NCBI GenBank assembly: GCA_964356915.1
Contig: CAYHJF010000001.1
Span: 77,743-141,742, forward strand
DNA from: an uncultured Candidatus Saccharibacteria bacterium
GTDB lineage: Bacteria; Patescibacteriota; Minisyncoccia; Ryanbacterales; GWA2-47-10b
Length of the DNA: 64,000 nucleotides
Direction of reading: 5' to 3'
Each line of letters opens with the position of its first letter. The first letter of the stretch is position 1. Of the stretch, positions 680 through 21,288 are shown piece by piece. Under the pieces are notes generated by a model that saw nothing but the letters and a program-made list of their open reading frames with translations, made no database searches and had not been told where the DNA came from. Position numbers and translations under genes: made by a program.

Positions 680-1396
680 TTATCGGAATCGAACGGGCAC
701 GGCAAAAGATTTTGCATACTCAGGTAGACCGCTGGGATTATCATTCTCAAAAAGTACGTACCCTGTATTTGCGGTTGGCGCTCCAAATGAAAGCTTACCT
801 TCAAACTCCACAAAATCCTCTGTCATCCATTCGCCCTTTGCCTGTAACGGTCCTTTGGCAATCAATTTATTATTTTCATCAAAGATACTTACGGGCATAT
901 TTGCTTCAAAAAACCACGTGCCCCGTGCCTTACCCTTGAGCACGAGTGGAGTTGAGATAATTGAATTTGCAACAGGACTTTCGATAACAACTTCTGGTAC
1001 TTGTTGGCGTTCATAGGTAATCGGTATATGTCGGGACTCAACGGACGTACCATCCGCTCCGTATACTCGAGCCCATACCTCACCCTCGAGGCGTAACTCT
1101 CCTAATAAAAAACGCTCTTCATTATTTGGCAACTCTTTTCGAAAAATCGTATCGGCGTCAGCGTCAGCTCCTTGGTATAATATTTCTTCTTTAACAACAT
1201 TTTTTGTATGAAGAACGACTGATGAATCGGAACCGTGAACAACGGTTTTACCATCCATACGACTCGGGACGATCGAGATCTCTTCTACTATTGGCTCTTG
1301 CTTCTGATATACCTGTTTTCGTTCAGGTAAAAATTTGAGCGCGAGCGCAATAATGGCCAGTAAAATCCAAAACCCAAAAAATAATTTTCCTTTCAT
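680..1396 (-). CDS. membrane-anchored protein with C-terminal Gmad2-like Ig domain
   Basis: N-terminal TM (FFGFWILLAIIALAL); C-terminal region (GTWFFEA...GEWMTEDFVEFEGKLSF) resembles Gmad2 Ig-like domains. Confidence 0.45.
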   Translation of the reverse strand: MKGKLFFGFWILLAIIALALKFLPERKQVYQKQEPIVEEISIVPSRMDGKTVVHGSDSSVVLHTKNVVKEEILYQGADADADTIFRKELPNNEERFLLGELRLEGEVWARVYGADGTSVESRHIPITYERQQVPEVVIESPVANSIISTPLVLKGKARGTWFFEANMPVSIFDENNKLIAKGPLQAKGEWMTEDFVEFEGKLSFGAPTANTGYVLFENDNPSGLPEYAKSFAVPVRFR

Positions 1397-4254
1397 AGTA
1401 CGATATTTACAAGCTTATTACCCACAATAATAATATTCTTCGGTTCTTGCCCATTTATATATTTCTTAATCTGCTCGCTTGAAAGCGCGCGCTCTTTCAT
1501 CTCCTGTTCGGTAATAGTTGCGGCAACTTCAATAATCTCACGCATCTTACCATTAACCTGAATCACGAGTTTGACAGAAACATCATGCGTTAGCGCCTCA
1601 TCGTAAGTTGGCCACATACTCTTATGAATTGAGTCTTTCTCGCCGAGCATCTCAAAAAGCTCGTCAGCGACGTGAGGAGCGAGCGGGGCGAGAAGCTTTA
1701 GAAAATCTTTAAGATCTTTTTTACCAACAATCCGACCACCCTCTTCAAACGTGTTGAGACAAATCATAAGTGCAGAAATCGCCGTATTAAATTGAAGCGA
1801 CTCCATATCTTCACTCACTTTCTTAATTGCCTTTGCAATCGCACGCTCCGCTATCTCATCGGATTCACCATCGATAACGCATTCCTTAAAATCCCATACT
1901 CGGCTCAAAAATCGTACCATGCCCCGAATGCCTGTATCTTGAAAATCTCCTCCCTCCGTCAGCGGTGCCATAAAAGCCAAATACATGCGCAGTGCATCTG
2001 CTCCGTACACACGCAAATAATCGTCGGGGTTTATCACATTGCCACGAGACTTTGACATCTTCGCTCCATCTTTCGTAATAAGTCCATGTGCGCGAAATTG
2101 CTTGATTGGTTCACCGCCAGACTCTTTTGCAAAATCAACAAACCCAAGATCGTGCAGCGCCATCGAAACAAAACGAACGTACAGAAGATGAAGTACTGAA
2201 TGTTCCGCACCACCAATATACGAGTGAACGGGCGCCCATGTGCGAGCACGAGACTCTGATACAAATTCTTTTTTATTACTTGGATCGAGATAACGTAAGT
2301 AATACCACGCAGAATCTAAAAACGTATCTGAAACATCTGTTTCTCGGCGCGCCTTACCTCCACACTTCGGGCACGTCGTTTCATAAAACTCCGGAAAGTT
2401 CGCGAGCGGTGCTTTATCTGTTCCCGTCGGACGAAATTCTTTTACATCAGGTAACAACACAGGCAAATTTTCCTCCTTCTCTGAAATCCATTCTTTACAC
2501 GAGTCACACCAAATCATCGGGATTGGTGGTCCCCAATAACGCTGTCGAGAAATAAGCCAATCACGAAGACGATAATTTGTCTGTTGCTTCCCCTTAACTT
2601 TTTCTGTAATTTTCCATTTTGCTTCTCTCGAACTCATCCCATCAAACTCTCCTGAATTTGTCAGTATGCCATCTCCGGAATATATTTCTCCTAAAACCAA
2701 ACGTCGAAATCCAAGAAGATGATTTTCATCCTCCATTTTTTGCAAAACCTCATCTTTTGTCAGCCACTCGATAGTAAAATTTCCTTTTTCATCATGTTGG
2801 AGATTTTCTTCAACTCGCTCATCTCCTTTCAGCCGAAAATAAAGACTAGTCACCTCAATATTGCGCGCGACATTCTTTGAAAACGCAAAGTAGTGGTGAT
2901 GCATGAGCTCTGACTTTGCCACAAACTCTAGTTGCGTATACCCCGTTTCTTCTTGAATCTCACGGAGTGCTGTTGCTACCTCATCTTCACCCTCTTCACG
3001 CCCCCCACCAATAAACAGCGTCCCGCCAAGTTTTGACCCCCAGTTCAATGTTAAAAATTTCTTATGCTTTGGATCCTCAACAATAGCGACAATACTCCTG
3101 CGATGCTGTTCGTCCGGCATTATCTTCCCTGTCTCTGGCTCAATGACCAACGCAATAGGAAGTTCAAACTTCTTTGCAAATTCAAAATCACGCTCATCGT
3201 GTGCTGGCACTGCCATGATCGCGCCTGTACCATATCCGCCAAGTACATAATCCGCGACCCAAACCGGAATCTGCTTATCAGTCGCAGGATTGATCGCATA
3301 GATACCACTAAAAACCCCTGTTTTTTCTTTTCCGAGAGCCAAACGCTCCTCTTCTTTTCCACCAAGGCTCTTCGTGATGTATGCCCTTACTTCGTCGGGT
3401 GCCTGCCACCCAATATCAAGCCAAAATTTTGCAGTCTCTGGCGAGATAACAAGAAAAGTTGTGCCAAAAAGTGTATCGGGGCGTGTCGTAAATACATCTA
3501 CCGAATGTTTGCCGTCTTCTTGTCCCGGGATACCGGTGAGTGGAAATGTGATAAGAGCACCCTCTGATTTACCGATCCAATTACGCTGAGCAGTTGTAAT
3601 TCGCCCATCCCAATCAATATGATCGAGACCATCTAAAAGTCGTCCGGCGTATTTCGTAATTTTGAAAAACCACTGCTCTAATTCTTTTTGAATAACCTCT
3701 GTTCCACATCGCTCACATTTTCCAGCGATCACCTGTTCATTTGCGAGTACGGTCAAACACTTCGGGCACCAATTGACCGATGCTTTTTTTCGATACGCAA
3801 GCCCCGCCTTAAAAAGCTGAATAAACAGCCACTGTGTCCAGCGATAATATTCGGGGTCATACGTCTCGAGTTTTTCGTCCCATGCAAATGCATTGCCAAT
3901 CTCATGCAACTGACGATAAAAATTTTCCTCAGTGCGTAGAGCAAGTTTTTTTGGATGCTCCCCAATCTTAATGGCGTAATTTTCTGAATTGATACCAAAT
4001 CCATCAAGTCCCATTGGCTGAAACACATCATGTCCCTGCATTCGCTTAAAGCGTCCGTATATATCAACTCCCGTAAATGTGCGCACACCTCCAATATGCA
4101 ACCCCTCCGCGGATGGATAGGGGAACATCATGAGATTATAAAAAGGCTTCTTGGGATTATCTAGATCCGGCTCGTACAAACGGTCTTGCAACCACCGCTC
4201 GCGCCACTTTTTCTCAATCTTTTTAAAATCGTACGCCTTCATGAATTCTTTCAT
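1393..4254 (-). CDS. leuS: leucyl-tRNA synthetase, with an inserted Nudix domain
   Basis: HIGG-type class I motif, TTRPDTLFG editing motif, GTGAIMAVPAHDERDFEFA, NSGEFDGM, RLRDWLISRQRYWG and KMSKS all present; 953 aa; extra ~150 aa carries a Nudix box. Confidence 0.93.
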   Translation of the reverse strand: MKEFMKAYDFKKIEKKWRERWLQDRLYEPDLDNPKKPFYNLMMFPYPSAEGLHIGGVRTFTGVDIYGRFKRMQGHDVFQPMGLDGFGINSENYAIKIGEHPKKLALRTEENFYRQLHEIGNAFAWDEKLETYDPEYYRWTQWLFIQLFKAGLAYRKKASVNWCPKCLTVLANEQVIAGKCERCGTEVIQKELEQWFFKITKYAGRLLDGLDHIDWDGRITTAQRNWIGKSEGALITFPLTGIPGQEDGKHSVDVFTTRPDTLFGTTFLVISPETAKFWLDIGWQAPDEVRAYITKSLGGKEEERLALGKEKTGVFSGIYAINPATDKQIPVWVADYVLGGYGTGAIMAVPAHDERDFEFAKKFELPIALVIEPETGKIMPDEQHRRSIVAIVEDPKHKKFLTLNWGSKLGGTLFIGGGREEGEDEVATALREIQEETGYTQLEFVAKSELMHHHYFAFSKNVARNIEVTSLYFRLKGDERVEENLQHDEKGNFTIEWLTKDEVLQKMEDENHLLGFRRLVLGEIYSGDGILTNSGEFDGMSSREAKWKITEKVKGKQQTNYRLRDWLISRQRYWGPPIPMIWCDSCKEWISEKEENLPVLLPDVKEFRPTGTDKAPLANFPEFYETTCPKCGGKARRETDVSDTFLDSAWYYLRYLDPSNKKEFVSESRARTWAPVHSYIGGAEHSVLHLLYVRFVSMALHDLGFVDFAKESGGEPIKQFRAHGLITKDGAKMSKSRGNVINPDDYLRVYGADALRMYLAFMAPLTEGGDFQDTGIRGMVRFLSRVWDFKECVIDGESDEIAERAIAKAIKKVSEDMESLQFNTAISALMICLNTFEEGGRIVGKKDLKDFLKLLAPLAPHVADELFEMLGEKDSIHKSMWPTYDEALTHDVSVKLVIQVNGKMREIIEVAATITEQEMKERALSSEQIKKYINGQEPKNIIIVGNKLVNIVL

Positions 4255-4310
4255 GCTATGGGAAAAAACACTTCAAATCAAATGAAAAACCCCGTCAAAG
4301 ACGGGGGTGA

Positions 4311-5156: not shown

Positions 5157-5211
5157 ACGCGACTCCCTTCATAAGAAGAACGATTACCCTGTTCTTAGCA
5201 CGTCGCGCAAA

Positions 5212-6051
5212 TTACGCAAGCCGAAAAAGTTTTGTAGCATTCTCTGTCGTCGCGCGCGCTACCTCTTCATATGAAATACCGCGGAGCTCCGCTACTTTTT
5301 TTGCTATCTCTCGCACATACAATGGCTCGTTGCGCTTACCTCGATACGGCACCGGTGAGACATAAGGTGCATCCGTCTCAACCATAATCCGATCGAGTGG
5401 AGATTTGGTCAGGGCATCATCATAGTCACGCGCAAAGGTAATGACTCCTGTAAACGACAAATGAAATCCTAAATCTAAAAACATCTTGGCGTCTTCCCAT
5501 GAACCCGCAAAAAAATGAATCGTCCCACCCGCCTCATCGGCTTTTTCCTCGCGCAAAATTGGCGCGAGATCATGATACGCGTTTCGACAATGAATAATCA
5601 TCGGTTTTTTTACTTCGCGCGCAAGCTGAATCTGACGACGTAATGTCTCGTGCTGCTTATCTCGCTTGTCGTCCGTCTCGCCTGTCCGAAAATAATCGAG
5701 TCCACACTCTCCGATCGCTACCGTCTTTGAATCAAGCGCGAGTGTTTTGTAATAATCAAAATCAAATTCTTCTGTGCGCGTATCAAATCCCGGTACATTG
5801 TCTTCGCCGATTTCCTTGGCATCAACATGAAGCTCGGTCAGATGAATCGGGTGAAGCCCGACTGCCGCCCATACTCCGTCATCATATTTACGCGCATATT
5901 CAAGGGCACGTCGTGACGTACTTGCCTGCGACCCAACGAGAATCATCCCCACACCTCCCTCATGAGCTCGCGCAATGACCTCTGGGCCGTCCTCTTTAAA
6001 CGCATTGAAATTTACATGCGCGTGGATATCGATAAGTTCCCAATCTCTCAT
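5212..6051 (-). CDS. TatD family metal-dependent DNase/hydrolase
   Basis: IDIHAHVNF N-terminus, ETDAPY motif, ~279 aa. Confidence 0.85.
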   Translation of the reverse strand: MRDWELIDIHAHVNFNAFKEDGPEVIARAHEGGVGMILVGSQASTSRRALEYARKYDDGVWAAVGLHPIHLTELHVDAKEIGEDNVPGFDTRTEEFDFDYYKTLALDSKTVAIGECGLDYFRTGETDDKRDKQHETLRRQIQLAREVKKPMIIHCRNAYHDLAPILREEKADEAGGTIHFFAGSWEDAKMFLDLGFHLSFTGVITFARDYDDALTKSPLDRIMVETDAPYVSPVPYRGKRNEPLYVREIAKKVAELRGISYEEVARATTENATKLFRLA

Positions 6052-7607
6052 GACTGTACGGTATCAAAAGATGGGAAGAGTGCTACACCACCCTGTATAG
6101 TGACTTTTTCGTCATGCATGACGAATATATCTTTTATCTTTTGTGCGGTACTCGGCATAAACGGCTCGAGAAGAGGAACGGATGCAAGGATATGTGAGGC
6201 AAGATTCCACAGTACTGCGAGCGCCTTTTGTTCGTCAATCTTGATAAGTTTATATGGTTCGTAATCTTGAATATACCCATCGAGTAACGCAAAGAAGCTA
6301 AACAATATTTTTATGGCTTCTGTCAGCTCAGTTACTTCCATAGCGTGGCTATATCGCTCTTCTATTTCTTTATGAAAATATCGATGCAACGTCTCACTGT
6401 CGAGCTCAACGGTCTTCTCGGAAACCTCTTGGCGAAGCTGTCGCTTCAACGGAATTGTCGCGAGAATATCAGCGGGAGGCTTGGCGATACCATCTGGCGC
6501 GTATTTTTGGATCATCGTAAAGACACGCGAGACAAGATTGCCAAGTCCGTGGGCAAGATTTCCTTGATACACGTCTTGAAATCGCTCGAGCGTAAAATCC
6601 CCATCCCCACCAAATGGAATCTCGCGCATAAGAAAATACCGAAACGCATCTACACCGTATGTATCAATGATAGAAAGCGGGTTGATCACATTTCCGATTG
6701 TCTTTGACATCTTTTGCCCGCCAGAAATAATCATCCCGTGTACATAGAGCGCTTTGGGCAATGGAAGATTTGCAGCCATGAGCATCCCCGGCCAAATAAC
6801 CGCATGAAAACGTAGAATATCTTTGCCAACCACATGGAGATTGGCAGGCCACATCGTACTCATGCGCGACTCATCGGATGAACCATATCCTAAAGCCGAG
6901 AGATAGTTGGAAAGCGCGTCCGCCCACACATACATCGTATGCTCTGGATCTCGGGGCACTGGTATCCCCCAACCAATATCTTTTGAAGGGCGAGAAAAAC
7001 TAATATCTTCAACACCGTCAGCTAAAAACGCGAGAACTTCATTCTTGCGAACTTCTGGCAAAACTTGAAAGGCTCCCGACTCAATTGCACTTTTGATGCG
7101 TGAAGCATATTTTGAGAGTCGAAAAAAATAATTCTCCTCTTCTATGACTTCTGGCGCTTGATTGTGATCAGTACACTTTCCATCTACAAGATCTTTTTCT
7201 GTTACAAATGCTTCGTGCCCAATACAGTAAAGGCCTTTGTATGAAGATTTATACAAATCCCCTGACTCCATAAGCTTTTCCCACATCTTTTGCGCGCCCG
7301 GCCAATGATGTTCCTTATCCGCCGTGTAAATAAATCCATCATTGGATGCGTCAAGTCTCTGAAGTAGGTTTTTGAATTCCTCTCTTCGTTCTTCGACAAA
7401 TTTTTCGACGGGCACTCCCGCCTTTTCTGCTGAACGCAAAATCTTTGCCCCATGCTCATCCGTACCTGAAAGAAAAAACGTATCATCTCCCTTGAGGCGA
7501 TGATATCGCGCGCACACATCCGCAATCACATCAGCATACGCATGTCCTAGGTGTGGAGATGCGTTGGCATAATAAATAGGAGTTGTAATGTAAAATGTAC
7601 GGCTCAT
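6048..7607 (-). CDS. metG: methionyl-tRNA synthetase (short form)
   Basis: PIYYANASPHLGHAY (HIGH-type motif), KMSKT motif, 519 aa. Confidence 0.92.
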   Translation of the reverse strand: MSRTFYITTPIYYANASPHLGHAYADVIADVCARYHRLKGDDTFFLSGTDEHGAKILRSAEKAGVPVEKFVEERREEFKNLLQRLDASNDGFIYTADKEHHWPGAQKMWEKLMESGDLYKSSYKGLYCIGHEAFVTEKDLVDGKCTDHNQAPEVIEEENYFFRLSKYASRIKSAIESGAFQVLPEVRKNEVLAFLADGVEDISFSRPSKDIGWGIPVPRDPEHTMYVWADALSNYLSALGYGSSDESRMSTMWPANLHVVGKDILRFHAVIWPGMLMAANLPLPKALYVHGMIISGGQKMSKTIGNVINPLSIIDTYGVDAFRYFLMREIPFGGDGDFTLERFQDVYQGNLAHGLGNLVSRVFTMIQKYAPDGIAKPPADILATIPLKRQLRQEVSEKTVELDSETLHRYFHKEIEERYSHAMEVTELTEAIKILFSFFALLDGYIQDYEPYKLIKIDEQKALAVLWNLASHILASVPLLEPFMPSTAQKIKDIFVMHDEKVTIQGGVALFPSFDTVQS

Positions 7608-7616
7608 ATCGTATTT

Positions 7617-9951: not shown

Positions 9952-9986
9952 TGAAATTAAAGAAAATCAAAGGTGGATGAACGTGA

Positions 9987-11285
9987 TTAACGGAGCTTTT
10001 TTGAGAAAAAATCCGAGAGCTCCAAAGACCCAACACGCTCCTGCTCACCCGAGTCACGATCGCGCACAGTTACGGTATCATCTTCAAGCGTCTGGTAGTC
10101 AACGGTCACACACCACGGAGTACCGATTTCATCTTGCCTTCTATACCGTTTGCCCACATTACCAATATCGTCCCACACCACTGACCCAATAGTCTTTTTG
10201 AGCTCGCCATATATCTCACGCGCCTTAGCAACGAGGTGCTCTTTATTTGAAGCGAGTGGAAAAACTGCAACCTTAATTGGAGCAAGCGTAGGCTTGAGAC
10301 GCAGTACAACTCTTTTGGACCCACCTAATTCGTCTTCGTCATACGCGGAGAGTAAGACCGCAAGCACTGTGCGGTCAACACCAAGCGATGGCTCAATAAC
10401 ATGCGGGATAAATGTTTCGTTCGCCTCTTCGTCGCGATATGAGAGATCTTTTGAACTATATTCTGAATGCTTTGTGAGGTCGTAATTTGTACGATATGCG
10501 AGTCCATACAGCTCCTTTTTGCCAAACGGATATTCAAACTCAAAATCAATCGTACGCTTTGAATAGTGCGCGCGATCTCCTGCCGCTACCTCAAGCTCGC
10601 TTACTGACTCTTTTGTAAGACCAATTGAGTCACACCACCTGAGCATCTCGCTACGAAAATGTTCAAAATGCACCTCCCACTCTCCCTCGCGAACAAAATA
10701 TTCGATCTCCATTTGCTCGAACTCGCGAGAACGAAATACAAAATCGCGTGGCGTAATTTCATTTCGAAATGCCTTGCCGATCTGCGCGATACCAAAAGGA
10801 AGTTTTGGGTGAAACGAATCAATCACATTTTTGAAATTCACAAAAATCCCCTGCGCGGTCTCGGGACGAAGATAGGAAGTATTCGAAGAATCCTCAACTG
10901 CGCCCACCTGCGTCTTAAACATCATATTAAATTGGCGAGGCTCTGTAAGTGCGCCTTCGCATTCGGGACACGTCGTCCCTTCTATCTGATCAGCACGAAA
11001 TCGTCTTTTACACTTTGTGCACTCAACCATTGGATCTGCAAACCCAGCGACATGTCCTGACGCTTCCCACACTCGCGCATTCATCAAGATTGCCGCATCG
11101 AGCCCAAACATATCTTCACGCTCCAAAACAAATTGTTTCCACCAAAGAGACTTGATGTTATTTTTGAGCGCCACGCCAAGCGGACCATAGTCCCACGTAC
11201 CCGCAAGTCCTCCGTAAACTTCAGACCCCGGAAAGATAAACCCTCGGCGCTTTGCAAGCGAAATGATTTGTTCAAGCGATGTCAT
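9987..11285 (-). CDS. glyS: glycyl-tRNA synthetase (eukaryote/archaeal-type alpha2)
   Basis: N-terminus RRGFIFPGSEVYGGLAGTWDYGPLG typical of dimeric GlyRS; class II motifs. Confidence 0.9.
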   Translation of the reverse strand: MTSLEQIISLAKRRGFIFPGSEVYGGLAGTWDYGPLGVALKNNIKSLWWKQFVLEREDMFGLDAAILMNARVWEASGHVAGFADPMVECTKCKRRFRADQIEGTTCPECEGALTEPRQFNMMFKTQVGAVEDSSNTSYLRPETAQGIFVNFKNVIDSFHPKLPFGIAQIGKAFRNEITPRDFVFRSREFEQMEIEYFVREGEWEVHFEHFRSEMLRWCDSIGLTKESVSELEVAAGDRAHYSKRTIDFEFEYPFGKKELYGLAYRTNYDLTKHSEYSSKDLSYRDEEANETFIPHVIEPSLGVDRTVLAVLLSAYDEDELGGSKRVVLRLKPTLAPIKVAVFPLASNKEHLVAKAREIYGELKKTIGSVVWDDIGNVGKRYRRQDEIGTPWCVTVDYQTLEDDTVTVRDRDSGEQERVGSLELSDFFSKKLR

Positions 11286-11318
11286 AGTAGTGACCCTATC
11301 ATACGAAAACCTCTCACG

Positions 11319-13253
11319 CTACTCGCGCACGGCAGCACCATTCACAACCGCTTCAGGATCGTTCCCAATGTCCGTATTGATCTGATTTGTCGGTTGTAAG
11401 AAAAGTCGACCGGTAAATGAGTCTTCAGCACGAAACGATGCTGCGGAAATAAGTTGTGGCGTAGAATCAACTTGCGGGAGTGATGGCTTGATACCTATTT
11501 GAAACGTTACCTCGCGTGGCTGATTTACATATCCAGTGCCTGCGGGAATTGTGCCGGGCAACCATACAAGTTCACCGGTCGTCTGCTTATACTGAAGTCG
11601 CTCCTGACTTGGAACAACAACATTTTTCCACGATACGTATGAAGGCAACGTCGCCTTCACCTCAACATTCTTTAAATCGCTATATGCATTCGCAATGGAC
11701 CATACAACTGTATAGGTGGTCTCAAGACCAACACGAGGAGGCAATGGTCCTGTATTTTGAATGCTTTGCCCAAAATAATATCCGTTTTGTACAAATCGTG
11801 CGCGCGTAGCAACTTTGTACGCCTTTTCAAATACACCGGACAAATCAACTCCTTGATATCCTGATGGTACTTCGGTCGTATGAATACGAGACTTGAGTGT
11901 AATAACAAAATCCTTATCACTCGGTGAAGTAATAGGAATATCTTTTAATAAGAGTATGCCGAAATCAAATTCACCACTTGCGCCCGGTTCAACAACAGAA
12001 AGTGCCGGTACACGCCCCGGGACCCATCGAAGTGCGTTGCGAGACTGATCATATTCGCCAAGAGTACTGGAAAGCCTCCTCAAATCGAGTGCCTTTCCAT
12101 CGAGCACAACTTCAACTTCCACATTATGAACGGCTACCGGCAAATTGTTGCGCCATCGCACCGTCCCTCGGAGTTCATCTCCCGCCGTAACCACGCCTGG
12201 CTCTTGTTCCCCCTGACTCAATCCAACCGCGACAGACAAGAGCGATGAATTAACGGCATATGTTTCTGACACTGTATTAAACGCAATCCATGAATCTTGC
12301 GCTCGATCATATAAACCAACGCGCGCATGAAATGTTTCTGGATTTTCGCTTGGTTTAATCTTTCCTCGGAGCGTAACGATGAACTCTCCGCTTGCGGGCA
12401 AATCTCCAATCTTCCACACATTATTACCTTGTTCTGGCGCAGGGGATGCGTCTGCATATTCAAACGAATCCGGATACTCAACCATCACATACATACCTCG
12501 AAAAACATTTTCTGCGCTTGATGTTACATGTAATTTGATTTCAGCCTGCTGCCCACCCTGTAATCCTTGTGGGATATCAAACTGAATTCCTAGCGATGTC
12601 GCATAAATTTTTGATTCATAGGTAACATCTTTTGAAAACCGCGCCGAGGAATCTTGGGGTCGATACTCGAGAGAAACGCGACCTCCTACAATACTATCCT
12701 TGGGCCCAAATACAATTCCTTGAAATATTTCTTCACTCACCGCCTCCGGTCCGAGCGTCTGCAACTCGCGCTTTTCTCGCTTGAGGCCAGTTTTAGAAAA
12801 TTCTCCTACAACCGGTTGAGTGCCGTTTGGAAATTCAAAGACGAGCACGGCATTTTCCAGCGGCGTTTTATTGCCATTTTTATATGTCACACGCCACGCA
12901 ACTTTTCTACCCGCAACGATCTCTTCTCCTCCTTCAACGGAAATAGAAATATTTTGTAACGTATCATGCCCTGGTTTAAATAAATTAAAACCACCCGCCG
13001 TCCAAAATAAATATCCAAAAATACCAAGTAACATTACAACTCCGCCGCCGATCCCCCAACGTATGATTGATCGGCTTATTCGCTTTTCGCGCATATCCTC
13101 TGGAGGTTGAGCTTCTTGATACTCATGTTCTTGTTCGTGCGACCACGCACCTGAAACATCTGCTCGATGTTTATCAAGTTGTGGTTCTTCATACCTCCGA
13201 TCAAAGCGTTCGTTCTTTCGAAAGAGACGCTTCTGTAAATCATCAATTCCCAT
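11319..13253 (-). CDS. large membrane-anchored surface protein with repeated beta-sandwich (DUF11/CARDB-like) domains
   Basis: 644 aa; cytoplasmic N-terminus, single TM (GIGGGVVMLLGIFGYLFW), then repeated ~100-aa beta-rich units. Confidence 0.5.
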   Translation of the reverse strand: MGIDDLQKRLFRKNERFDRRYEEPQLDKHRADVSGAWSHEQEHEYQEAQPPEDMREKRISRSIIRWGIGGGVVMLLGIFGYLFWTAGGFNLFKPGHDTLQNISISVEGGEEIVAGRKVAWRVTYKNGNKTPLENAVLVFEFPNGTQPVVGEFSKTGLKREKRELQTLGPEAVSEEIFQGIVFGPKDSIVGGRVSLEYRPQDSSARFSKDVTYESKIYATSLGIQFDIPQGLQGGQQAEIKLHVTSSAENVFRGMYVMVEYPDSFEYADASPAPEQGNNVWKIGDLPASGEFIVTLRGKIKPSENPETFHARVGLYDRAQDSWIAFNTVSETYAVNSSLLSVAVGLSQGEQEPGVVTAGDELRGTVRWRNNLPVAVHNVEVEVVLDGKALDLRRLSSTLGEYDQSRNALRWVPGRVPALSVVEPGASGEFDFGILLLKDIPITSPSDKDFVITLKSRIHTTEVPSGYQGVDLSGVFEKAYKVATRARFVQNGYYFGQSIQNTGPLPPRVGLETTYTVVWSIANAYSDLKNVEVKATLPSYVSWKNVVVPSQERLQYKQTTGELVWLPGTIPAGTGYVNQPREVTFQIGIKPSLPQVDSTPQLISAASFRAEDSFTGRLFLQPTNQINTDIGNDPEAVVNGAAVRE

Positions 13254-13290
13254 AGAGTACTTTCAATTATATACAACCTTTGCCTTAAGG

Positions 13291-13866
13291 TCATGCCCGA
13301 ATATGATTTGCAGCCAAAATCCGCTCGATTGCCGCCTCAAAATGAGCAACTTCTACTGGATCAGCTAAGAAAACCGCGTCACCCGCACCAACGATGAACT
13401 GAACTGCCCGTTTACCAAAAAACTGCGTAAGCATCGTACGATCTGGGCAAAGCCCTAACGCCAAAAGAGTTCGTATCTTGAGCGCGGCAAGACGCTCATA
13501 TGAATTAAGTTGCTGTAATAACTCGACTGTTCGCCACAAATCAAGACTCTCCTCGCGCTCCGTAACAAGCTTCAAAAGAAACGCGCAAAATTGAGCCGCA
13601 TAAAATGACTCTGGACGAGACGAATCAACTCCCTGCATAACCTCTATATCAATCAATCTCCACACATCTCTTCCAACGGTCACCGTAATACGAACGGGAG
13701 CCCACAATATCACATGCCCCCGTAATTTCGATTTCTCATGACGAATACCTTTTGCAATAACATCAACTCGCCCCCATGTCTTTGTGTAAAATATAACCAT
13801 CCGATCCGCCTCTCCGATCGGATATGATCGGAGTATGTAAGCTTCAGACGTATAATACGTACTCAT
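13291..13866 (-). CDS. recO: DNA repair protein RecO (short form)
   Basis: N-terminus YILRSYPIGEADRMVIFYTKTWGRVDVIAKG matches the RecO N-terminal OB-fold domain. Confidence 0.7.
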   Translation of the reverse strand: MSTYYTSEAYILRSYPIGEADRMVIFYTKTWGRVDVIAKGIRHEKSKLRGHVILWAPVRITVTVGRDVWRLIDIEVMQGVDSSRPESFYAAQFCAFLLKLVTEREESLDLWRTVELLQQLNSYERLAALKIRTLLALGLCPDRTMLTQFFGKRAVQFIVGAGDAVFLADPVEVAHFEAAIERILAANHIRA

Positions 13867-16800
13867 GCCTCAAGCTTGGCAATTGCAATGCGCGTCTTTA
13901 TACCATCGATGAGTTGTTCTTCGTCAAGAAGAGGATTTTTTAACGAAGCGGGGAGGATAAACTCCGCAACACGCGCGCCCCTTTTTACAACCTCCGTAAA
14001 TTCTCCGAGAATTTCTGTATCCATGTCAACCGTAATCATATCCGTTGGGTGTAGCTCCGCGCGCTTACGCATATCCTGAAGAATACGGGTAATCTCTCGT
14101 GCAAGACCCTCAGCCTTAAGCTCTGGCGTTATCTCTAGATTAAGAAGCGCTAGTTCATTTTGCGCCTTATTGATATTTATAGCTTTTACATTGAGCTCAT
14201 CTTTAAGAATTGAAAGAAGTGCTTTATCGGTTACGGTAGTTTTTTTAACAATCAACGCGCCCAACGGCTGACGGACTTTGATGCCAGCGCGCGCGCGAAG
14301 CTCAAGCCCAAGCGCGGCAAGACGTCTCACTTCCTGCATTTGTGTAGTCAGTGTTTTTGATACAATTTTTTTCTTAGGCCACGTCTCAAGATGCACGCTC
14401 ACTGATGAACCACCAAGAGCCTGATATATAATCTCACTGGTAAACGGAACAAACGGAGCACACATCCTTGCAGTCTCCAGCAATACCGCTCTCAACGTTG
14501 CAATGCCATCTCCATCTTTCATGCGTTCACGCGAACGACGAATATACCATCGAGAAATATCTTCGCCTACAAACGCTTCGAGTTCACGCGCGGCCCCAAC
14601 AATATCATATCCATCCATACACTTTGTCACCTTATCGCGCACTTCACTCACGCGTGCCACAATCCATCGATCAAGTACATTTGCTGTCACGCGCTTCTTT
14701 TTTATCACTTCTGTATGCGCGTACATCTCATAAAACCGTAACCCGTTGAGCAAGAAATCGATAAAATTACGTTTTGTCTTTTCAACATCATTGATATCGA
14801 ATAACTTTGAATCCTCGGGCTGATTTATCGTATAGAAATACCATCGCACCGCATCAGCACCATATTTTTCAAAAAGCATATTCGGCTCAACAACATTTCC
14901 CTTTGACTTGGACATCTTCTTTCCTTTTGTATCGAGTACATGACCAAGCGACAACACATGTTTATACGGCGCTCCCTTCCCTAACAACACCGATACTGCA
15001 AGAAGCACATAAAACCATCCGCGCGTCTGATCAACAGCTTCCGCGATATAATCTGCTGGAAACGCGATTTTCTTATCGATGCGTTCTTTATGTTCAAAAG
15101 GATAGTGTGACTGCGCGAATGGCATCGCCCCCGAATCAAACCACACGTCTGCCACATCCGGCACGCGCTTCATGGACGATCCGCACCCCGTGCATCGTAC
15201 AGCGACAGCATCAATATACGGACGATGTACATCAAGCTCCCCTTTATCGTTGCGAGGCAGCGCTACTGCAAGAACCTTGTTAATGTCTCCGTTTTTTGGA
15301 TATTTACCACTCGGTTTTTTGTGGTCTTCGAGTACCGCCTTCATCACTCCCTCCAAAAACCACAACGTATCAGCGTGACTTACGATGATAATACGTTTGT
15401 GTTTGTGAAGTGTTTCGACACGCTGGAAAAACCGATAGGCCCGTTTTTTAAGATCATCCCACGACTCTCCATCACCCGGAAATGGAGTCGTAAAACGATC
15501 CACTCGCTCTTCCCATGCATCAATCTCTGACTCCGGCTTCATATTAAAGTCTCCAATATGAACCTCTCGCAAGTCCTCATCATATAAAACCGGTACGCCA
15601 AGCTCACGCGCAAGAATTTCTGTCGTCTCTTTTGTACGCAAGAGATCCGACGACAAAATAAGATCGATCTTTGCCTTTTTCAATTTCTTCGCCGCCAATT
15701 TTATCTCCTTTACTCCACGTGGCGTCAATCCAAGTTGATCTCCTTTTACTGTATTGGAGCCGATCTGGAGCTGATTATTTTTTGCAAAACCATGTCGTAC
15801 AAAATAATACACGTTGTCACTCGTAACGCCATGCTCTCCTAGTTCCTTCATCGAGCCAAACACATCGACACGGTCACACCCCTCACACTTCCACACAGGA
15901 ATCGGCGCGCCCCAATACCGTTCGCGTGAAAACGCCCAATCTCGCGCATCCTTAATCCATTGGCCAAACCGCCCATCTTTTAAATGTGCTGGATGCCATT
16001 CAACTGTTTTATTTGCCTCAACAAGCTCGCGGCGCAATTTACTGACACGCACCCACCATGACCGGCGCGCCACGTACAGAAGCGGCGTATCGCAACGCCA
16101 ACAAAATGGGTAGTCGTGCTCGTATACTTCTTTTTTCCAAAGAAGATTTTTTTGTTCGAGATCTTTAATGATTAACGGGTCAGCATCTTTTACAAAAATT
16201 CCCTGCCACTGTGGCACCACATTCGTAAAACGCCCCTCGTCATCGATTGTCGTAAGAATAGGCAAATCAAATTCTCGTCCAACTTTCATATCGTCCTCAC
16301 CAAATGCCGGCGCAATATGCACGATGCCCGTACCATCATCTTCGGAGATGAATTTTGCGGACACTACTTTATATGGTACGTTTTCAGCGCGAAATGGTGG
16401 ATCATATTCAAGTCCCACAAGATTTGCTCCTTTTTCCGCCCACTGCTGCTCTCTTTCTGGAAAAAGCTTGTCCGCAAGCTTTTTAAGCATAATAAACTTC
16501 TCACCCTTATCATCAACAGTGACGTACTCAAGATCAGGATGTACCGCCGCCGCGACGTTGGCAGGCAAAGTCCATGGCGTTGTCGTCCATACAAGCAGTG
16601 AACCTCGTCGAGTTTTTAAGGGAAATCTTACGTATACTGAATCGTCTTTTGTTTTTTTGTACCCTTGAGCAAGCTCATGACTTGAAAGTGCGGTGCCACA
16701 TCGCACGCACCACGGCAAAATTTTATAATCTTCATAAAAAAGCTTTTTATTCCAAAACTCCTTGATAACCCACCAGAGCGATTCAATATATGTATTATTG

Positions 16801-17264
16801 AGCGTGACATACGCGTTCTTAAAATCGAGCCAGTAGCCCATGCGATCGGTCATCTTCTCCCACTCGCCTTTGTAAAAAAATACGTCCTCGCGAGCTGTCT
16901 CAACAAATTTCTGAATACCAATTTTTTCTTCAATATCTCGCTTGCGCGTAATACCAAGTTTTTTTTCGGCAGCCATCTCTGTCGGCAACCCATGCGTATC
17001 CCATCCAGCGCGACGCTCAACCAAAAAACCTTGCATCGTCTTGTACCGAATCATGACATCCTTAAAAGCCCGCGCCTCTACGTGGTGAAGCCCCGGGAGA
17101 CCATTTGCATATGGAGGTCCCTCAAAAAAAACGAAGCGCTTGGATCCCTTGCGCTGCTTAAGGCTTTTCTCGAATATATTCTTCTCAGCCCAGAATCCAA
17201 GGACCTCGAGCTCATTTCGCATTTTTCTATTATTAACGAAAATGTTACTTATTTCAATGCTCAA
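13863..17264 (-). CDS. ileS: isoleucyl-tRNA synthetase, with an inserted histidine-phosphatase-like domain
   Basis: TTTPWTLPANVAAAVHP editing motif, WCVRCGTALS, KMSKSKGN; 1133 aa; TTG start; extra ~200 aa domain with RHG motif. Confidence 0.93.
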   Translation of the reverse strand: MSIEISNIFVNNRKMRNELEVLGFWAEKNIFEKSLKQRKGSKRFVFFEGPPYANGLPGLHHVEARAFKDVMIRYKTMQGFLVERRAGWDTHGLPTEMAAEKKLGITRKRDIEEKIGIQKFVETAREDVFFYKGEWEKMTDRMGYWLDFKNAYVTLNNTYIESLWWVIKEFWNKKLFYEDYKILPWCVRCGTALSSHELAQGYKKTKDDSVYVRFPLKTRRGSLLVWTTTPWTLPANVAAAVHPDLEYVTVDDKGEKFIMLKKLADKLFPEREQQWAEKGANLVGLEYDPPFRAENVPYKVVSAKFISEDDGTGIVHIAPAFGEDDMKVGREFDLPILTTIDDEGRFTNVVPQWQGIFVKDADPLIIKDLEQKNLLWKKEVYEHDYPFCWRCDTPLLYVARRSWWVRVSKLRRELVEANKTVEWHPAHLKDGRFGQWIKDARDWAFSRERYWGAPIPVWKCEGCDRVDVFGSMKELGEHGVTSDNVYYFVRHGFAKNNQLQIGSNTVKGDQLGLTPRGVKEIKLAAKKLKKAKIDLILSSDLLRTKETTEILARELGVPVLYDEDLREVHIGDFNMKPESEIDAWEERVDRFTTPFPGDGESWDDLKKRAYRFFQRVETLHKHKRIIIVSHADTLWFLEGVMKAVLEDHKKPSGKYPKNGDINKVLAVALPRNDKGELDVHRPYIDAVAVRCTGCGSSMKRVPDVADVWFDSGAMPFAQSHYPFEHKERIDKKIAFPADYIAEAVDQTRGWFYVLLAVSVLLGKGAPYKHVLSLGHVLDTKGKKMSKSKGNVVEPNMLFEKYGADAVRWYFYTINQPEDSKLFDINDVEKTKRNFIDFLLNGLRFYEMYAHTEVIKKKRVTANVLDRWIVARVSEVRDKVTKCMDGYDIVGAARELEAFVGEDISRWYIRRSRERMKDGDGIATLRAVLLETARMCAPFVPFTSEIIYQALGGSSVSVHLETWPKKKIVSKTLTTQMQEVRRLAALGLELRARAGIKVRQPLGALIVKKTTVTDKALLSILKDELNVKAININKAQNELALLNLEITPELKAEGLAREITRILQDMRKRAELHPTDMITVDMDTEILGEFTEVVKRGARVAEFILPASLKNPLLDEEQLIDGIKTRIAIAKLEA

Positions 17265-17321
17265 GACGATTGACTCTCATCTTATTCTTGTTACGCTGAC
17301 GCAAGAATTGGAGGACAAGAA

Positions 17322-17609
17322 ATGCTACTTGAAATCTGGCATCATAAAGATCGAGCATCTGAATGGGCTGAAGTATCCGCTGTAAGAATGACGGGACCTT
17401 CAACTGCGCAAATTTTTCTCTCTGACCCAAATCAAGTATGGTTTTTACTCGCCTCTCCAACGCGTGTCCATGAAAATGAAAATCGCTGGGTATATCACGC
17501 AACCATATCCATACAAACTAATGAGAAACTCGAGGGAGTACTCACAGCTATCCGTCATGATCTTGGTTTTAAGGAAATTTTTCTCCCATTTAAACTCCAT
17601 CTCACATAA
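17322..17609 (+). CDS. hypothetical protein
   Basis: 95-aa ORF on the plus strand between two minus-strand genes, followed by an intrinsic terminator hairpin at 17615-17645. Confidence 0.35.
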   Translation: MLLEIWHHKDRASEWAEVSAVRMTGPSTAQIFLSDPNQVWFLLASPTRVHENENRWVYHATISIQTNEKLEGVLTAIRHDLGFKEIFLPFKLHLT

Positions 17610-17611
17610 CA

Positions 17612-17648
17612 AAAAACACCGAGCTTTTATACTCGGTATTTTTATACT
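17612..17648. terminator. bidirectional intrinsic terminator
   Basis: caccgagc-loop-gctcggt hairpin flanked by T-runs on both strands. Confidence 0.5.
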
Positions 17649-17667
17649 ATCTCTCTAAACTTTATAT

Positions 17668-18405
17668 TTACTGTTCGATCATAACAGTCATCGTATCGCC
17701 CTGTTGGATCTTTCGCGCTACATCAATCCCACTCACTACTTTGCCGAATACTGTGTGTTTACCATTGAGATGGGGCTGAGGCGCGTCAGTAATAATAAAG
17801 AATTGACTGCCGTTTGTATTAGGACCCGCGTTCGCCATCGAGATCGCGCCTACATCATTTTTGAGAGACTGTAAGGAATAATCATACTGATATCCCTGTG
17901 CCTCATACCCCTTAATAACTTGCTCGGGTACACCAAGTGCTTTCGGATTTATTTCATCCGCAAATTTATACCCAGGACCACCTGTACCATTTCCTGAAGG
18001 ATCTCCTCCTTGGATCATGAATCCTTGGATGACGCGATGAAATGTAAGTCCATTGTAAAATCCTTTCTTCGCAAGCGTCACAAAGTTATCAACGGTCTTA
18101 GGAGCAACGCTCGGATATAATTCGATTTTAATTTCTCCTTTTGGAGTTTGCATCGCTACCTTGATAACTTGCGCGGCGACGACTGATGGGTTTTGTTCCA
18201 TAGATGGTTTTTGATTTAAATTTTGCTCAACCTGATTATTAATACCTTGTGCCGTGTCTTGGAAGGAATCCTTTGCCTCGCTCGGCTTTTTACCGTTAAA
18301 AATAAAGAGAACCGCTCCCGTGATAACAATAGCGGTCATAAATCCGCCAAGAATAATAGTTTGTTTTGATGCATCCATACCAAAATAGTATAGAGAGGTG
18401 CCCAT
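17668..18405 (-). CDS. TM-anchored cyclophilin-type peptidyl-prolyl cis-trans isomerase
   Basis: [14 protein letters not shown] and FFIT...[10 protein letters not shown] motifs; N-terminal TM. Confidence 0.85.
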
Positions 18406-18440
18406 GCAAACGCAAGAAAAACTCGCGCAATGCTATTAAT

Positions 18441-18743
18441 TTAAAAAAGTGATTGATAACTATTGAAAATATACGCAAACACACCTGCATAGCTCAAATC
18501 GAGTAAAAGTCCCGCATATATCCATCGTGATTTTAATAAAAATGATATAACGGTCACCACCCCAAGCGCGCTAAACGGGATAATGACAAAAAATACGTAG
18601 AATGCTCCTATAGCACCGTTCCATTCCGCACACGGAGTCAAGCCAAAGCAAAGAAGAAAACCAAAAAAACAAGAAACTCCGACGACAACAATAGCCACTA
18701 GCCACGCAAGAGTCTCTATAAAAAATTTTGTCATATCTTTCAT
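18441..18743 (-). CDS. hypothetical membrane protein
   Basis: 100 aa with 3 predicted TM helices. Confidence 0.35.
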   Translation of the reverse strand: MKDMTKFFIETLAWLVAIVVVGVSCFFGFLLCFGLTPCAEWNGAIGAFYVFFVIIPFSALGVVTVISFLLKSRWIYAGLLLDLSYAGVFAYIFNSYQSLF

Positions 18744-18748
18744 ATTCT

Positions 18749-20362
18749 CTACATTCGCTCTGGGGCAGAAACTCCCAAAAGCTTGAGTGTGCGCTCGATA
18801 GTCTGTTTTGCTAGTAAGGCAAGTCCAAGGCGTGCATATTCAACTTCGCGCCCACCGCCAATAACCTTTGTCGTCTCATAAAAACTCGTAAAAGTGCGCG
18901 CGAGCTCGTATACGTACCTCGTCAACCTCTGTACTTCAAAATCGACTGCCGTATCGTCGAGTACCCCCTGAAACTGAAGTATGTGTTTCAAAAGTGTGGC
19001 CTCTCGCTCACTTTCACATAATTCCCACTTCGCTTTTTTAAGATCAATTCTCTTCTTTGACTTACGCAAAATCCCCGCCGCGCGCGCATACGCATACTGC
19101 ACATAATAAACTGGATTGTCTTTGGAATGTTTTTTGGCAAGCGTCATATCGAATTGCATACCAGATCGTGGAGCATACTGAAGCATAAAAAATCGAAACG
19201 CGTCTTTACCTACTTCTTTTAATACTTCTTCCGCGGTCACAAAGTTTCCTTTCCGCTTCGACATAGTTACTACTTCACCATTCTTTATAAGATTCACCTG
19301 CCCATACATCGCTACATGAAAATGATCGAGCGGAAAGCCAAATGTATGCGCGATCGATTTAAGCTTTGGAATATGTCCCTCGTGCCCTTCGCCAAATACA
19401 TCGAGTACAAAATCATTTTTAGCGAATTTTTCTTTGTGATACGCGATATCATTTGCAAAATATAAGAGCGTGCCATCGGCCTTCGCCACCACCGTCTCTC
19501 TATCTTTCAAAAACTCATCATGCGGGGCATACCATACTGCCCCCTCCTTCTCGATTAACATTTTCTTGCGACGAAGTTCATCAAGTACTTTTTTTGTTTT
19601 GTTTTTTGCGAGCACGCTCTCCTTGATAATTTTATCAAACTTGATTCCGAGCTTTTTGAGCGTAGCAAAGTTTTCAACCCAAAACTTCTTGAGTGCCAAC
19701 TCGGCAAGAACACTCTTTCCATTTTTCTTCTTTAATAAAGTCTTTTTGTACTTACGAAACGCCGCGCGGGCAATTTCCTTTATATACTCACCTTCGTAAC
19801 CTTCCTCGGGCAACTGAGATGGAATTTTGCAGGCGACCAAATACCAATGCCACAAAGAATTTTCGAGTTTCGTGATCTGGGCACCCGCATCATTATGAAA
19901 ATACTCACGCGTCACCTTCCATCCTGTCGCTTCTATAATATTTGAAATTGTGTCCCCGAGCGGACCACCGCGCGCGTTCCCAACATGAATCGGACCTGTA
20001 GGGTTTGCCGAAACGAACTCAACAGAGACTGTTCCACGCTTCTTTTTTTTCTCTGGCTTAAGCGTTTCTTGAATCATTTGTCCAACGAATGCCGATGACA
20101 AGAAAAAGTTAAGAAACCCTGGCTGGGCAACTTGAATCGAATAAAAAGTATCTTGATGCTTTTCAAAAATCTTTTCAGCAAGCCCTTCAGCTACAGCAAT
20201 GGGACTTTTTCCTTCTTTTTTCGCTAAAATAAAAGCAACATTTGACGCATAGTCTCCGCGTCCGGCAATCTCCGGTACAGAAACTGTAAAATGTGCGTCA
20301 GCTCCAACTTCTTTGCGAATAATCTCTTCAATTATTTTTCGTATATTTCGTTCGGCCTGCAT
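18749..20362 (-). CDS. argS: arginyl-tRNA synthetase
   Basis: SANPTGPIHVGNARGG (HIGH-type motif), 537 aa, DALR-like C-terminus. Confidence 0.9.
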   Translation of the reverse strand: MQAERNIRKIIEEIIRKEVGADAHFTVSVPEIAGRGDYASNVAFILAKKEGKSPIAVAEGLAEKIFEKHQDTFYSIQVAQPGFLNFFLSSAFVGQMIQETLKPEKKKKRGTVSVEFVSANPTGPIHVGNARGGPLGDTISNIIEATGWKVTREYFHNDAGAQITKLENSLWHWYLVACKIPSQLPEEGYEGEYIKEIARAAFRKYKKTLLKKKNGKSVLAELALKKFWVENFATLKKLGIKFDKIIKESVLAKNKTKKVLDELRRKKMLIEKEGAVWYAPHDEFLKDRETVVAKADGTLLYFANDIAYHKEKFAKNDFVLDVFGEGHEGHIPKLKSIAHTFGFPLDHFHVAMYGQVNLIKNGEVVTMSKRKGNFVTAEEVLKEVGKDAFRFFMLQYAPRSGMQFDMTLAKKHSKDNPVYYVQYAYARAAGILRKSKKRIDLKKAKWELCESEREATLLKHILQFQGVLDDTAVDFEVQRLTRYVYELARTFTSFYETTKVIGGGREVEYARLGLALLAKQTIERTLKLLGVSAPERM

Positions 20363-20914: not shown

Positions 20915-21269
20915 GGGGACGCTAGGCCTCGACGAGGAATCGTTTTCATTGAAAATCAGGCAAGAGCACGCTCGCTCATCTCTTTCAAAACTGTGTGAGC
21001 ATAATAAGTGCAAACTTATTTAACCGCCAACCGGCGATGGCATTTGCCTAGTCGCGGCGTTCTCTCACTTCGCTAGACGAAGTGAGCATCGGTCCGCAAT
21101 AGTCAGGTGAGCGGAATACCGGTGTTATAATCCCAGACTAGCGTGATGTGATGCTCGGTAGCATCGCGCGAAACTAATCGAGCAACTTCTTAAGATTCGT
21201 CTTGAGTACGCCTGTATAAATTTTTAGTGAGTCCATCTTCGCATGTGGGTTCGATTCCCACCGTCTCCA
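20915..21269 (+). ncRNA. ssrA: tmRNA (SsrA), ~355 nt
   Basis: Lies directly downstream of smpB. The 5' GGGGACG pairs with 3' CGUCUCC to form the acceptor stem. UCGACGAGG near the 5' end is tmRNA-like. The T-arm is GGGUUCGAUUCCCAC. An internal tag ORF begins GCA AAC (21010-21051) and reads ANLFNRQPAMAFA*. Confidence 0.7.
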
Positions 21270-21288
21270 CTGACAACACGACCCGCTT

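Follow-up and report, generated by a model that had tools for sequence, protein, structure and literature searches.

What is a phosphatase doing inside an isoleucyl-tRNA synthetase (IleRS)? The question is raised by a 64,000-nucleotide stretch of DNA (contig CAYHJF010000001.1 of assembly GCA_964356915.1, positions 77,743 to 141,742), the whole of which we call the window, from a bacterium that GTDB places in the Patescibacteriota. On its minus strand lies ileS, and the first-pass annotation, made from the letters of the window without database searches, had described a histidine phosphatase domain between the two zinc-knuckle elements of the encoded enzyme. Here we ask whether this domain is real, what kind of phosphatase it is, how it came to be there, and what it may do. 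We consider it probable that the gene encodes a working type-2 IleRS of a Patescibacteria (candidate phyla radiation (CPR), Paceibacteria-like) bacterium, that the connective peptide 3 (CP3) of this enzyme hosts a complete phosphatase of the PhoE/CobC type, that the phosphatase is an internalised neighbour from an argS-ileS gene cluster, and that its activity is tied to aminoacylation.

The host enzyme can be assigned with several profiles and structures. The ileS reading frame runs without interruption over 1133 amino acids (aa). The mechanical start codon is TTG, and the ATG at codon 15 is the likelier true start because alignments with homologues begin at aa ~18. The whole protein scores as an ileS equivalog (NCBIfam TIGR00392, 840.5 bits against a cut-off of 621.4), and its Pfam domains follow the order tRNA-synt_1, His_Phos_1, tRNA-synt_1, Anticodon_1 and DUF5915. 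The best matches in the PDB are IleRS2 of Priestia megaterium (PmIleRS2; 8c8w, 812 bits) and the Thermus thermophilus enzyme TtIleRS (1ile, 791 bits), and the IleRS1 structures 8c9f and 1ffy score lower (~346-350 bits). By these matches the host is a type-2 (eukaryote-like) IleRS, in which a DUF5915 C-terminal region replaces the zinc-binding C-terminus of IleRS1. In addition, its class I HIGH motif has the GXHH form, a variant tied to mupirocin hyper-resistance in IleRS2 (PMC10485003). The alignment with PmIleRS2 over aa 14-479 takes in the editing region, and the KMSKS loop is intact at aa 783-787. At the level of its motifs the synthetase part is thus whole, with GXHH, KMSKS, editing region and anticodon domain all present, and the earlier description of an uninterrupted frame with intact editing and KMSKS motifs holds.

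The inserted segment interrupts this synthetase at one point. Pfam His_Phos_1 (PF00300) matches aa 487-637 with E=6.3e-31 and 108 bits, against a gathering score of 21.7. Residues 10-478 and 485-885 of PmIleRS2 match aa 14-479 and 676-1067 of the window protein, and because the alignment splits at aa 479/676, ~190 aa stand where PmIleRS2 has a 7-residue loop. The first-pass estimate of ~200 inserted residues was therefore sound, and its figure of ~20-40 residues for the canonical spacing was roughly right; the solved IleRSs have 7-40 residues at the CP3 tip. In other respects the window protein resembles PmIleRS2 and TtIleRS end to end, sharing DUF5915, the CP3 zinc knuckle (TtIleRS) and GXHH (IleRS2), so that the difference lies in the ~190-aa enzyme domain. 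The two knuckle halves, CEGC at aa 460-463 (within VWKCEGCDRV, aa 457-466) and CTGC at aa 691-694 (within RCTGCG, aa 690-695), flank the insert as had been claimed, with DVHRPYID (aa 678-685) lying between the insert and the second half. The alignment places the insert at the distal tip of CP3, on linkers of ~10 residues on its N side and ~3 on its C side. CP3 itself comes after the CP2-CP3 linker, of the ARDWxxSRxRYWG type, which reads ARDWAFSRERYWG in the window IleRS. CP3 of T. thermophilus IleRS has a zinc-binding motif that the Staphylococcus aureus and Candida enzymes lack, and the topology of CP3 differs among the three structures (PMC7191050). The GC content of the insert (44.4%) is close to that of the rest of ileS (45.8%) and of the window (44.8%).

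The inserted phosphatase appears catalytically competent, as its sequence keeps the full catalytic set: R490 and H491 of the RHG motif, R543 in SSDLLRTKET, E567 in LREVHIGDF, which aligns with LREIHLGDW of PhoE, and H630 in IIIVSHADTLW (aa 625-635). Both the RHG motif and IIIVSHADTLW lie where they had first been reported. We followed these positions through an alignment of 170 domain copies, taken from 156 proteins with mutual identities of at most 50%. R490 and H491 are kept in 167 copies, the remaining three being gaps in fragments. R543 is likewise arginine in 167 of the 170, and H630 is histidine in 165, with gaps in the others. Wherever a copy extends over these four positions, the residue is kept. 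Position 567 is glutamate in 155 copies and aspartate in 11. In addition, E600 and R608 are nearly invariant. The copies share only ~35% identity overall (~33-40% pairwise, at whatever insertion site). Because the catalytic residues are invariant at this low overall identity, the alignment points to selection on catalysis.

Modeling of aa 455-700 with AlphaFold2 (64 aligned sequences) gave a confident and separate fold, with a mean predicted local distance difference test (pLDDT) score of 93.6 and a predicted template modelling (pTM) score of 0.90. A Foldseek search of the PDB with this model returned histidine-phosphatase-fold proteins only, with template modelling (TM) scores up to 0.79. PhoE (1h2e) was the best match, and the other top matches were the phosphoserine phosphatase PspA (4ij6, TM 0.79), the glucosyl-3-phosphoglycerate phosphatase GpgP and CobC; cofactor-dependent phosphoglycerate mutases (dPGMs) were also returned. 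The probability was 1.00 for PhoE, PspA, CobC and the dPGMs. The closest solved protein by sequence is PhoE/YhfR (E=1.5e-11), with a near-identical acid motif, LRE(V/I)H(I/L)GD(F/W). As modelled, the insert is an independently folding branch-1 histidine phosphatase of the PhoE/CobC type.

Within this superfamily, two known enzymes stand closest. PhoE (YhfR) of Geobacillus stearothermophilus (1h2e, 1ebb) shares the RHG...R...E...H set, the LREIHLGDW motif and a length of ~200 aa with the window domain. PhoE, however, is a free-standing soluble protein and only ~25% identical, whereas the window domain sits inside an aminoacyl-tRNA synthetase (aaRS) and belongs to a Patescibacteria-specific, argS/ileS-linked group described below. 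The top NCBIfam match is CobC, the alpha-ribazole-5'-phosphate phosphatase (TIGR03162; structures 6e4b, 6nru and 1v37), which is also small and acts on a nucleotide-like 5'-phosphate substrate. CobC identity was rejected, at 84.5 bits against a cut-off of 162.9 for TIGR03162 and 64.4 against 250 for PRK15004, and the window shows no cobalamin-pathway context. The same scoring rejected identity as a dPGM (dPGM_arch 83 against 225 bits, GpmB 56.5 against 261, pgm_1 26.6 against 81.7), as PspA (57 against 350) and as SixA (31 against 74.5). Of the first label, "PGAM-like", the superfamily thus stands; the phosphoglycerate mutase part gives way to a PhoE/CobC-like assignment.

The insert is shared by many genomes. 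With the window protein as query, we searched GTDB at one genome per species and obtained 41 loci (L002-L042) in which junction and insert are both encoded. In 38 of them a single open reading frame (ORF) spans the N-terminal IleRS part, the insert and the C-terminal part, at 42-59% identity to the window protein. All but two of the 41 bear Patescibacteria-type labels (Colwellbacteria, Yanofskybacteria, Niyogibacteria, Harrisonbacteria, Tyrphobacter, Paceibacter and the complete genome AP024682). The insertion boundaries are identical in all aligned insert-bearing IleRSs, even at only ~40% identity, and the gap closes exactly in the IleRSs of archaea, of Bacilli and of the patescibacterial loci L040 and L044. 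With the same insert at the same site in one ORF across ~40 related genomes, the suspicion of an assembly chimera that accompanied the first description does not hold. A profile search of 1.84 billion cluster representatives (50% identity clusters) returned 380 proteins at E<=1e-30. The best 150 of these are nearly all IleRSs, full-length or fragment, with junction and insert in one stretch, and at least 150 clusters share the architecture. A collection of 5.8 billion proteins, searched through a word index of limited sensitivity, yielded neither the window IleRS nor a full-length fused relative, only five fragments.

Three contigs from this comparison call for comment. L044 (CAYWEH010000006.1) and L004 (CAZBFO010000002.1) are labelled "uncultured Gammaproteobacteria"; their IleRS and synteny are patescibacterial, and the labels look wrong. 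On L001 (1102-4635), a long-read-style contig from ENA, three frameshifts break the fused gene into four gene calls; these frameshifts are probably sequencing (long-read) errors rather than signs of a pseudogene.

The same phosphatase also occurs as a free-standing protein. At L040 the IleRS has no insert, and a 187-aa His_Phos ORF lies adjacent, directly downstream of argS. Against a hidden Markov model (HMM) built from inserts only, this ORF scores 217 bits, within the range of true inserts, and the window insert scores 205. Free-standing proteins reach 195-237 bits, compared with 68-124 bits for generic His_Phos proteins. Two of the latter, P0007 (124 bits) and P0008 (68 bits), have no aaRS neighbours in their gene contexts and were placed outside the group on both grounds. 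A domain-only profile found 1748 proteins at E<=1e-15; among the top-scoring 120, nearly every one is patescibacterial and free-standing, with a length of 187-200 aa. Judged by these scores and contexts, the window insert is a member of a patescibacterial, argS/ileS-linked subfamily of histidine phosphatases, which we define here.

Gene order links the two forms. Searching with the L040 ORF gave four contexts in which argS is followed by the histidine phosphatase gene (HP), convergent with an insert-less ileS, and argS-HP stands beside a convergent ileS at L040 and at L088-L094. In more divergent contexts the genes run in series: argS-HP-ileS-x-recO-DUF11-hisS at L095, argS-HP-orf-ileS-orf-recO at L096, HP-ileS-recO at L098, and argS-HP-ileS-recO-DUF11-hisS at L099, where HP and ileS overlap by 11 nt. 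At L097 the order is spoU-HP-orf-leuS. The free-standing gene often abuts or overlaps ileS. In at least 20 insert-bearing loci argS is followed by the fused ileS::HP, and then by recO, DUF11, hisS and M16 where the flank permits; no free-standing HP copy was found within +-6 kb of these loci, nor a second copy in the window. In the loci examined, the free-standing and inserted forms are complementary. The order argS-(HP)-ileS-recO-DUF11-hisS-M16 is conserved across divergent Patescibacteria.

In these loci the phosphatase gene stands free beside ileS or else lies inside it, with no separate copy close by. It therefore seems that ileS has taken a neighbouring gene into its own frame. In the simplest reading, an HP gene between argS and ileS would have been relocated by ~1.4 kb into the loop that codes for the CP3 tip. 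One locus shows neither form: L044 has argS followed by ileS (1000 aa), with no insert and no adjacent His_Phos gene. Its IleRS groups with the insert-bearers, and L044 may represent loss of the insert.

In the window the order is argS, a small ORF, a cyclophilin gene, ileS::HP, recO, DUF11 and hisS (Table 1). The start of the recO-like gene overlaps the ileS stop by 4 nt (13863-13866), which suggests translational coupling. Five synthetase genes, leuS, metS, hisS, ileS and argS, lie on one strand within 19 kb (1393-20362). The same stretch holds two M16 peptidase genes, a gene for a DUF11 surface-type protein, recO and the cyclophilin gene. Further along, a tmRNA gene (20915-21272, plus strand, Rfam 88 bits) encodes the tag peptide ANLFNRQPAMAFA, and no other Rfam or tRNA-type gene was found in the window.

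Table 1. Positions in the window of the fused ileS gene, its motifs and the associated genes and domains.
Feature	Position	Strand	Remarks
argS (ArgRS)	18749..20362	-	upstream cluster member; Pfam and synteny
ileS ORF	13863..17264	-	1133 aa; type-2 IleRS with internal His_Phos domain
GLHH (GXHH form of HIGH)	17082..17093	-	G58-L-H-H61
CP3 zinc knuckle, half 1	15876..15887	-	C460-E-G-C463
Inserted His_Phos_1 domain (PhoE/CobC-like)	15240..15836	-	aa ~477-675, ~190 aa
RHG motif	15789..15797	-	aa 490-492; R490 and H491 (predicted phospho-accepting His)
R543	15636..15638	-	second Arg of the predicted phosphate pocket
E567	15564..15566	-	predicted general acid
H630	15375..15377	-	second catalytic His (predicted)
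CP3 zinc knuckle, half 2	15183..15194	-	C691-T-G-C694
KMSKS loop, intact	14904..14918	-	aa 783-787
recO-like gene	13291..13866	-	downstream cluster member
hisS	9987..11285	-	
metS	6048..7607	-	
LeuRS ORF	1393..4254	-	953 aa
Nudix domain in LeuRS	2725..3105	-	aa 384-510
Nudix box, intact	2941..3006	-	LeuRS aa 417-438

The tip of CP3 is one of several insertion sites. Among the 150 representatives at least 96 are certain cases of the CP3 site, and 11 carry two to four His_Phos copies. Tandem pairs occupy CP3 in P0091, P0093, P0095 and P0135. Other copies lie between DxWFxSG and DQTRGWF (P0074, P0122, P0129), behind the second half of the knuckle (P0074), or past KMSKS, where the anticodon-binding domain begins (P0050, P0117, P0122, P0129, P0134, P0140). 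The P0122 cluster is present on contigs up to 1.06 Mb. The capture extends to valyl-tRNA synthetase (ValRS): P0071 (1161 aa, on a 3.9-kb contig), whose best NCBIfam match is valS, is a ValRS fragment with four His_Phos copies, each with RHG. Since copies are ~33-40% identical regardless of site, best matches do not separate CP3-derived copies from independent captures.

The leucyl-tRNA synthetase (LeuRS) of the window carries a different hydrolase, as the first-pass annotation had also noticed. A Nudix domain (E=7.6e-13) lies directly after the CP1 editing domain and has an intact Nudix box, GGREEGEDEVATALREIQEETG. At the same site (aa 383-566), the LeuRS of L097 (7550-10585, plus strand) bears an alpha/beta serine-hydrolase domain (PF06821), and leuS is preceded in that genome, at a distance of two genes, by a free-standing His_Phos gene.

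What might such a phosphatase do? The first-pass annotation had suggested that it may serve nucleotide or aminoacyl-adenylate turnover or have a moonlighting function. As we picture it, the phosphatase would be joined to IleRS by the short linkers and produced with it in a 1:1 ratio. It would hydrolyze phosphomonoesters by way of a phospho-H491 intermediate, with R490, R543 and H630 forming the phosphate pocket and E567 serving as the acid. Its activity would be functionally tied to class Ia aminoacylation rather than to glycolysis; we draw this link because the phosphatase is found either fused or adjacent and because it was captured repeatedly, by IleRS and by ValRS. The gene context supports some functional tie of this kind, and the free-standing copy upstream of leuS at L097 and the Nudix domain in the window LeuRS point the same way. 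Candidate substrates are AMP, which aminoacylation produces, another nucleoside phosphate, or a tRNA whose end is phosphorylated. We prefer a co-localised or co-expressed enzyme that acts on a diffusible or flexibly presented substrate over rigid channelling. On a broader proposal, the IleRS, ValRS and LeuRS of Patescibacteria would be platforms for His_Phos, Nudix and alpha/beta hydrolases that carry out an undescribed upkeep of aminoacylation substrates, for example by removing (pyro)phosphate from tRNA 3' ends that are damaged or have been modified by toxins, or by breaking down inhibitors that resemble adenylates. A single pathway would then exist in two forms, as the argS-HP-ileS operon and as the IleRS::HP fusion. 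We offer this proposal as speculation that is unlikely to be correct.

Several observations weigh against the reading of an internalised phosphatase devoted to aminoacylation. The window insert, taken as a measure of its subfamily, falls below every NCBIfam equivalog cut-off for histidine phosphatases. The isoelectric point (pI) of the domain ranges from 5.1 to 9.8 across the family, so that the conserved basic surface expected of an RNA-binding module is lacking; as a proxy for RNA binding this spread is mildly negative at most. A neighbor-joining tree of the IleRS core, which is star-like and carries no support values, nests the insert-less L040 and L044 among the insert-bearers. The gene order may be conserved among these small genomes through common descent and have no functional meaning. 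In addition, the domain also occurs free-standing and at several positions in IleRS, so that it probably need not be placed exactly with respect to the tRNA CCA end, and this weakens any claim of direct channelling.

The main rival explanation takes the domain for a hitch-hiker. An ordinary metabolic phosphatase or small phosphoglycerate mutase with a housekeeping role would have been fused by chance into an essential, constitutively expressed neighbour in a streamlined genome. The free form indeed looks like a normal ~190-aa protein of the "broad specificity phosphatase PhoE" type, dPGM_arch ranks second among the NCBIfam matches, and the domain tolerates several insertion sites and the free-standing state, with no conserved pI. 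The dPGM_arch score, however, reaches 83 bits against an equivalog cut-off of 225. dPGMs carry an E-R-H-Y-G motif in the acid-motif region, and this region of the insert agrees instead with the phosphatase PhoE. Chance also accounts poorly for repeated independent insertion, which reached ValRS as well as four IleRS sites and produced up to four copies in one protein, and for a placement in argS/ileS/leuS operons that is kept across divergent lineages. We regard this explanation as unlikely, while taking it seriously.

A second explanation would give the phosphatase a task in tRNA-end repair. Toxic alarmone-synthetase homologues pyrophosphorylate tRNA CCA ends. The phosphatase would strip a 3'(2')-phosphate from the CCA end after nuclease damage or after (pyro)phosphorylation by a toxin, the LeuRS Nudix domain would cleave the pyrophosphate first, and the tRNA would become chargeable again at the synthetase. 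The presence of two different phosphohydrolases, His_Phos and Nudix, within two class Ia enzymes of one genome fits this idea, as does the fact that fusion of the domain is seen with tRNA-binding enzymes only. The location is suggestive as well: CP3 directly follows the CP2-CP3 linker, which in yeast IleRS lines the tRNA A76 pocket and the pocket of reveromycin A at the tRNA-binding site (PMC7955072). The Foldseek neighbours, however, include no histidine-phosphatase-fold enzyme that acts on RNA ends. The sites vary, one of them lying after KMSKS and adjoining the anticodon-binding domain, and both the existence of free-standing forms and the lack of a conserved basic surface count against this reading. 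We consider tRNA-end repair, though attractive, distinctly improbable as the specific function.

Alternatively, the fold may serve as a structural, oligomerisation or binding scaffold, that is, as a pseudo-enzyme. Histidine-phosphatase-fold proteins are often dimers or tetramers, which would suit such a role, and CP3 is structurally variable among IleRSs (PMC7191050). A scaffold would scarcely keep its catalytic residues invariant over 170 copies at ~35% identity, and this reading is very hard to credit. Finally, the notion of an artefact or selfish element, whether an assembly chimera, a frameshift-joined gene pair or an intein-like mobile insertion, draws on the three frameshifts of L001 and has next to no probability, given an ORF that is unbroken in the window and in 38 species genomes, independent of one another and drawn from different studies, the matching GC content of insert and gene, boundaries that stay constant among sequences only ~40% identical, and a Pfam scan of the window IleRS that found no intein or endonuclease domain; the chimera, intein and mobile-element readings were rejected on the comparative data, Pfam and GC.

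The internalised phosphatase that we favor has partial parallels among known enzymes. NF040702 (ileS_w_GNAT) is a curated precedent for an IleRS with an extra enzyme domain. There the domain is a GNAT acetyltransferase and not a phosphatase, and the window protein, at 327.8 bits against a cut-off of 1999, is a non-member. The CP1 editing domain is a hydrolytic domain within the Rossmann-fold core of IleRS, ValRS and LeuRS. CP1, however, is universal, hydrolyzes aminoacyl esters and has another fold, whereas the His_Phos insert is lineage-specific, lies in CP3 and is a predicted phosphomonoesterase. In the RNase H/acid phosphatase NF005567 (Rv2228c type), a CobC-like phosphatase is fused to a nucleic-acid enzyme. 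That fusion is end to end and with another partner enzyme, and the window protein scores 60 against 326.

In the full-text literature, with subscription journals partly covered, no paper came up that describes a histidine-phosphatase insert in IleRS or ValRS, or the argS-HP-ileS linkage. Databases label the fusions "class I tRNA ligase family protein" or "isoleucine--tRNA ligase" and the free form "broad specificity phosphatase PhoE". Accessory and inserted domains of aaRSs are already known; the argS-HP-ileS linkage and the phosphatase insert in IleRS and ValRS are new here.

The aaRSs rank with the most highly conserved enzymes, and it is rare for their Rossmann-fold core to hold a catalytic accessory domain other than CP1. 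Here an apparently active phosphatase is embedded in the IleRS of a large part of the Patescibacteria, and fusion in some genomes with adjacency in others is a classic sign of functional partnership. For the metabolism of these bacteria there is a practical consequence, as metabolic reconstructions of the CPR may miscount the phosphatase as a phosphoglycerate mutase. The phosphatase is a tractable protein of ~190 aa, and its substrate could show something new about how organisms of minimal metabolism charge their tRNAs, control quality or economise on nucleotides.

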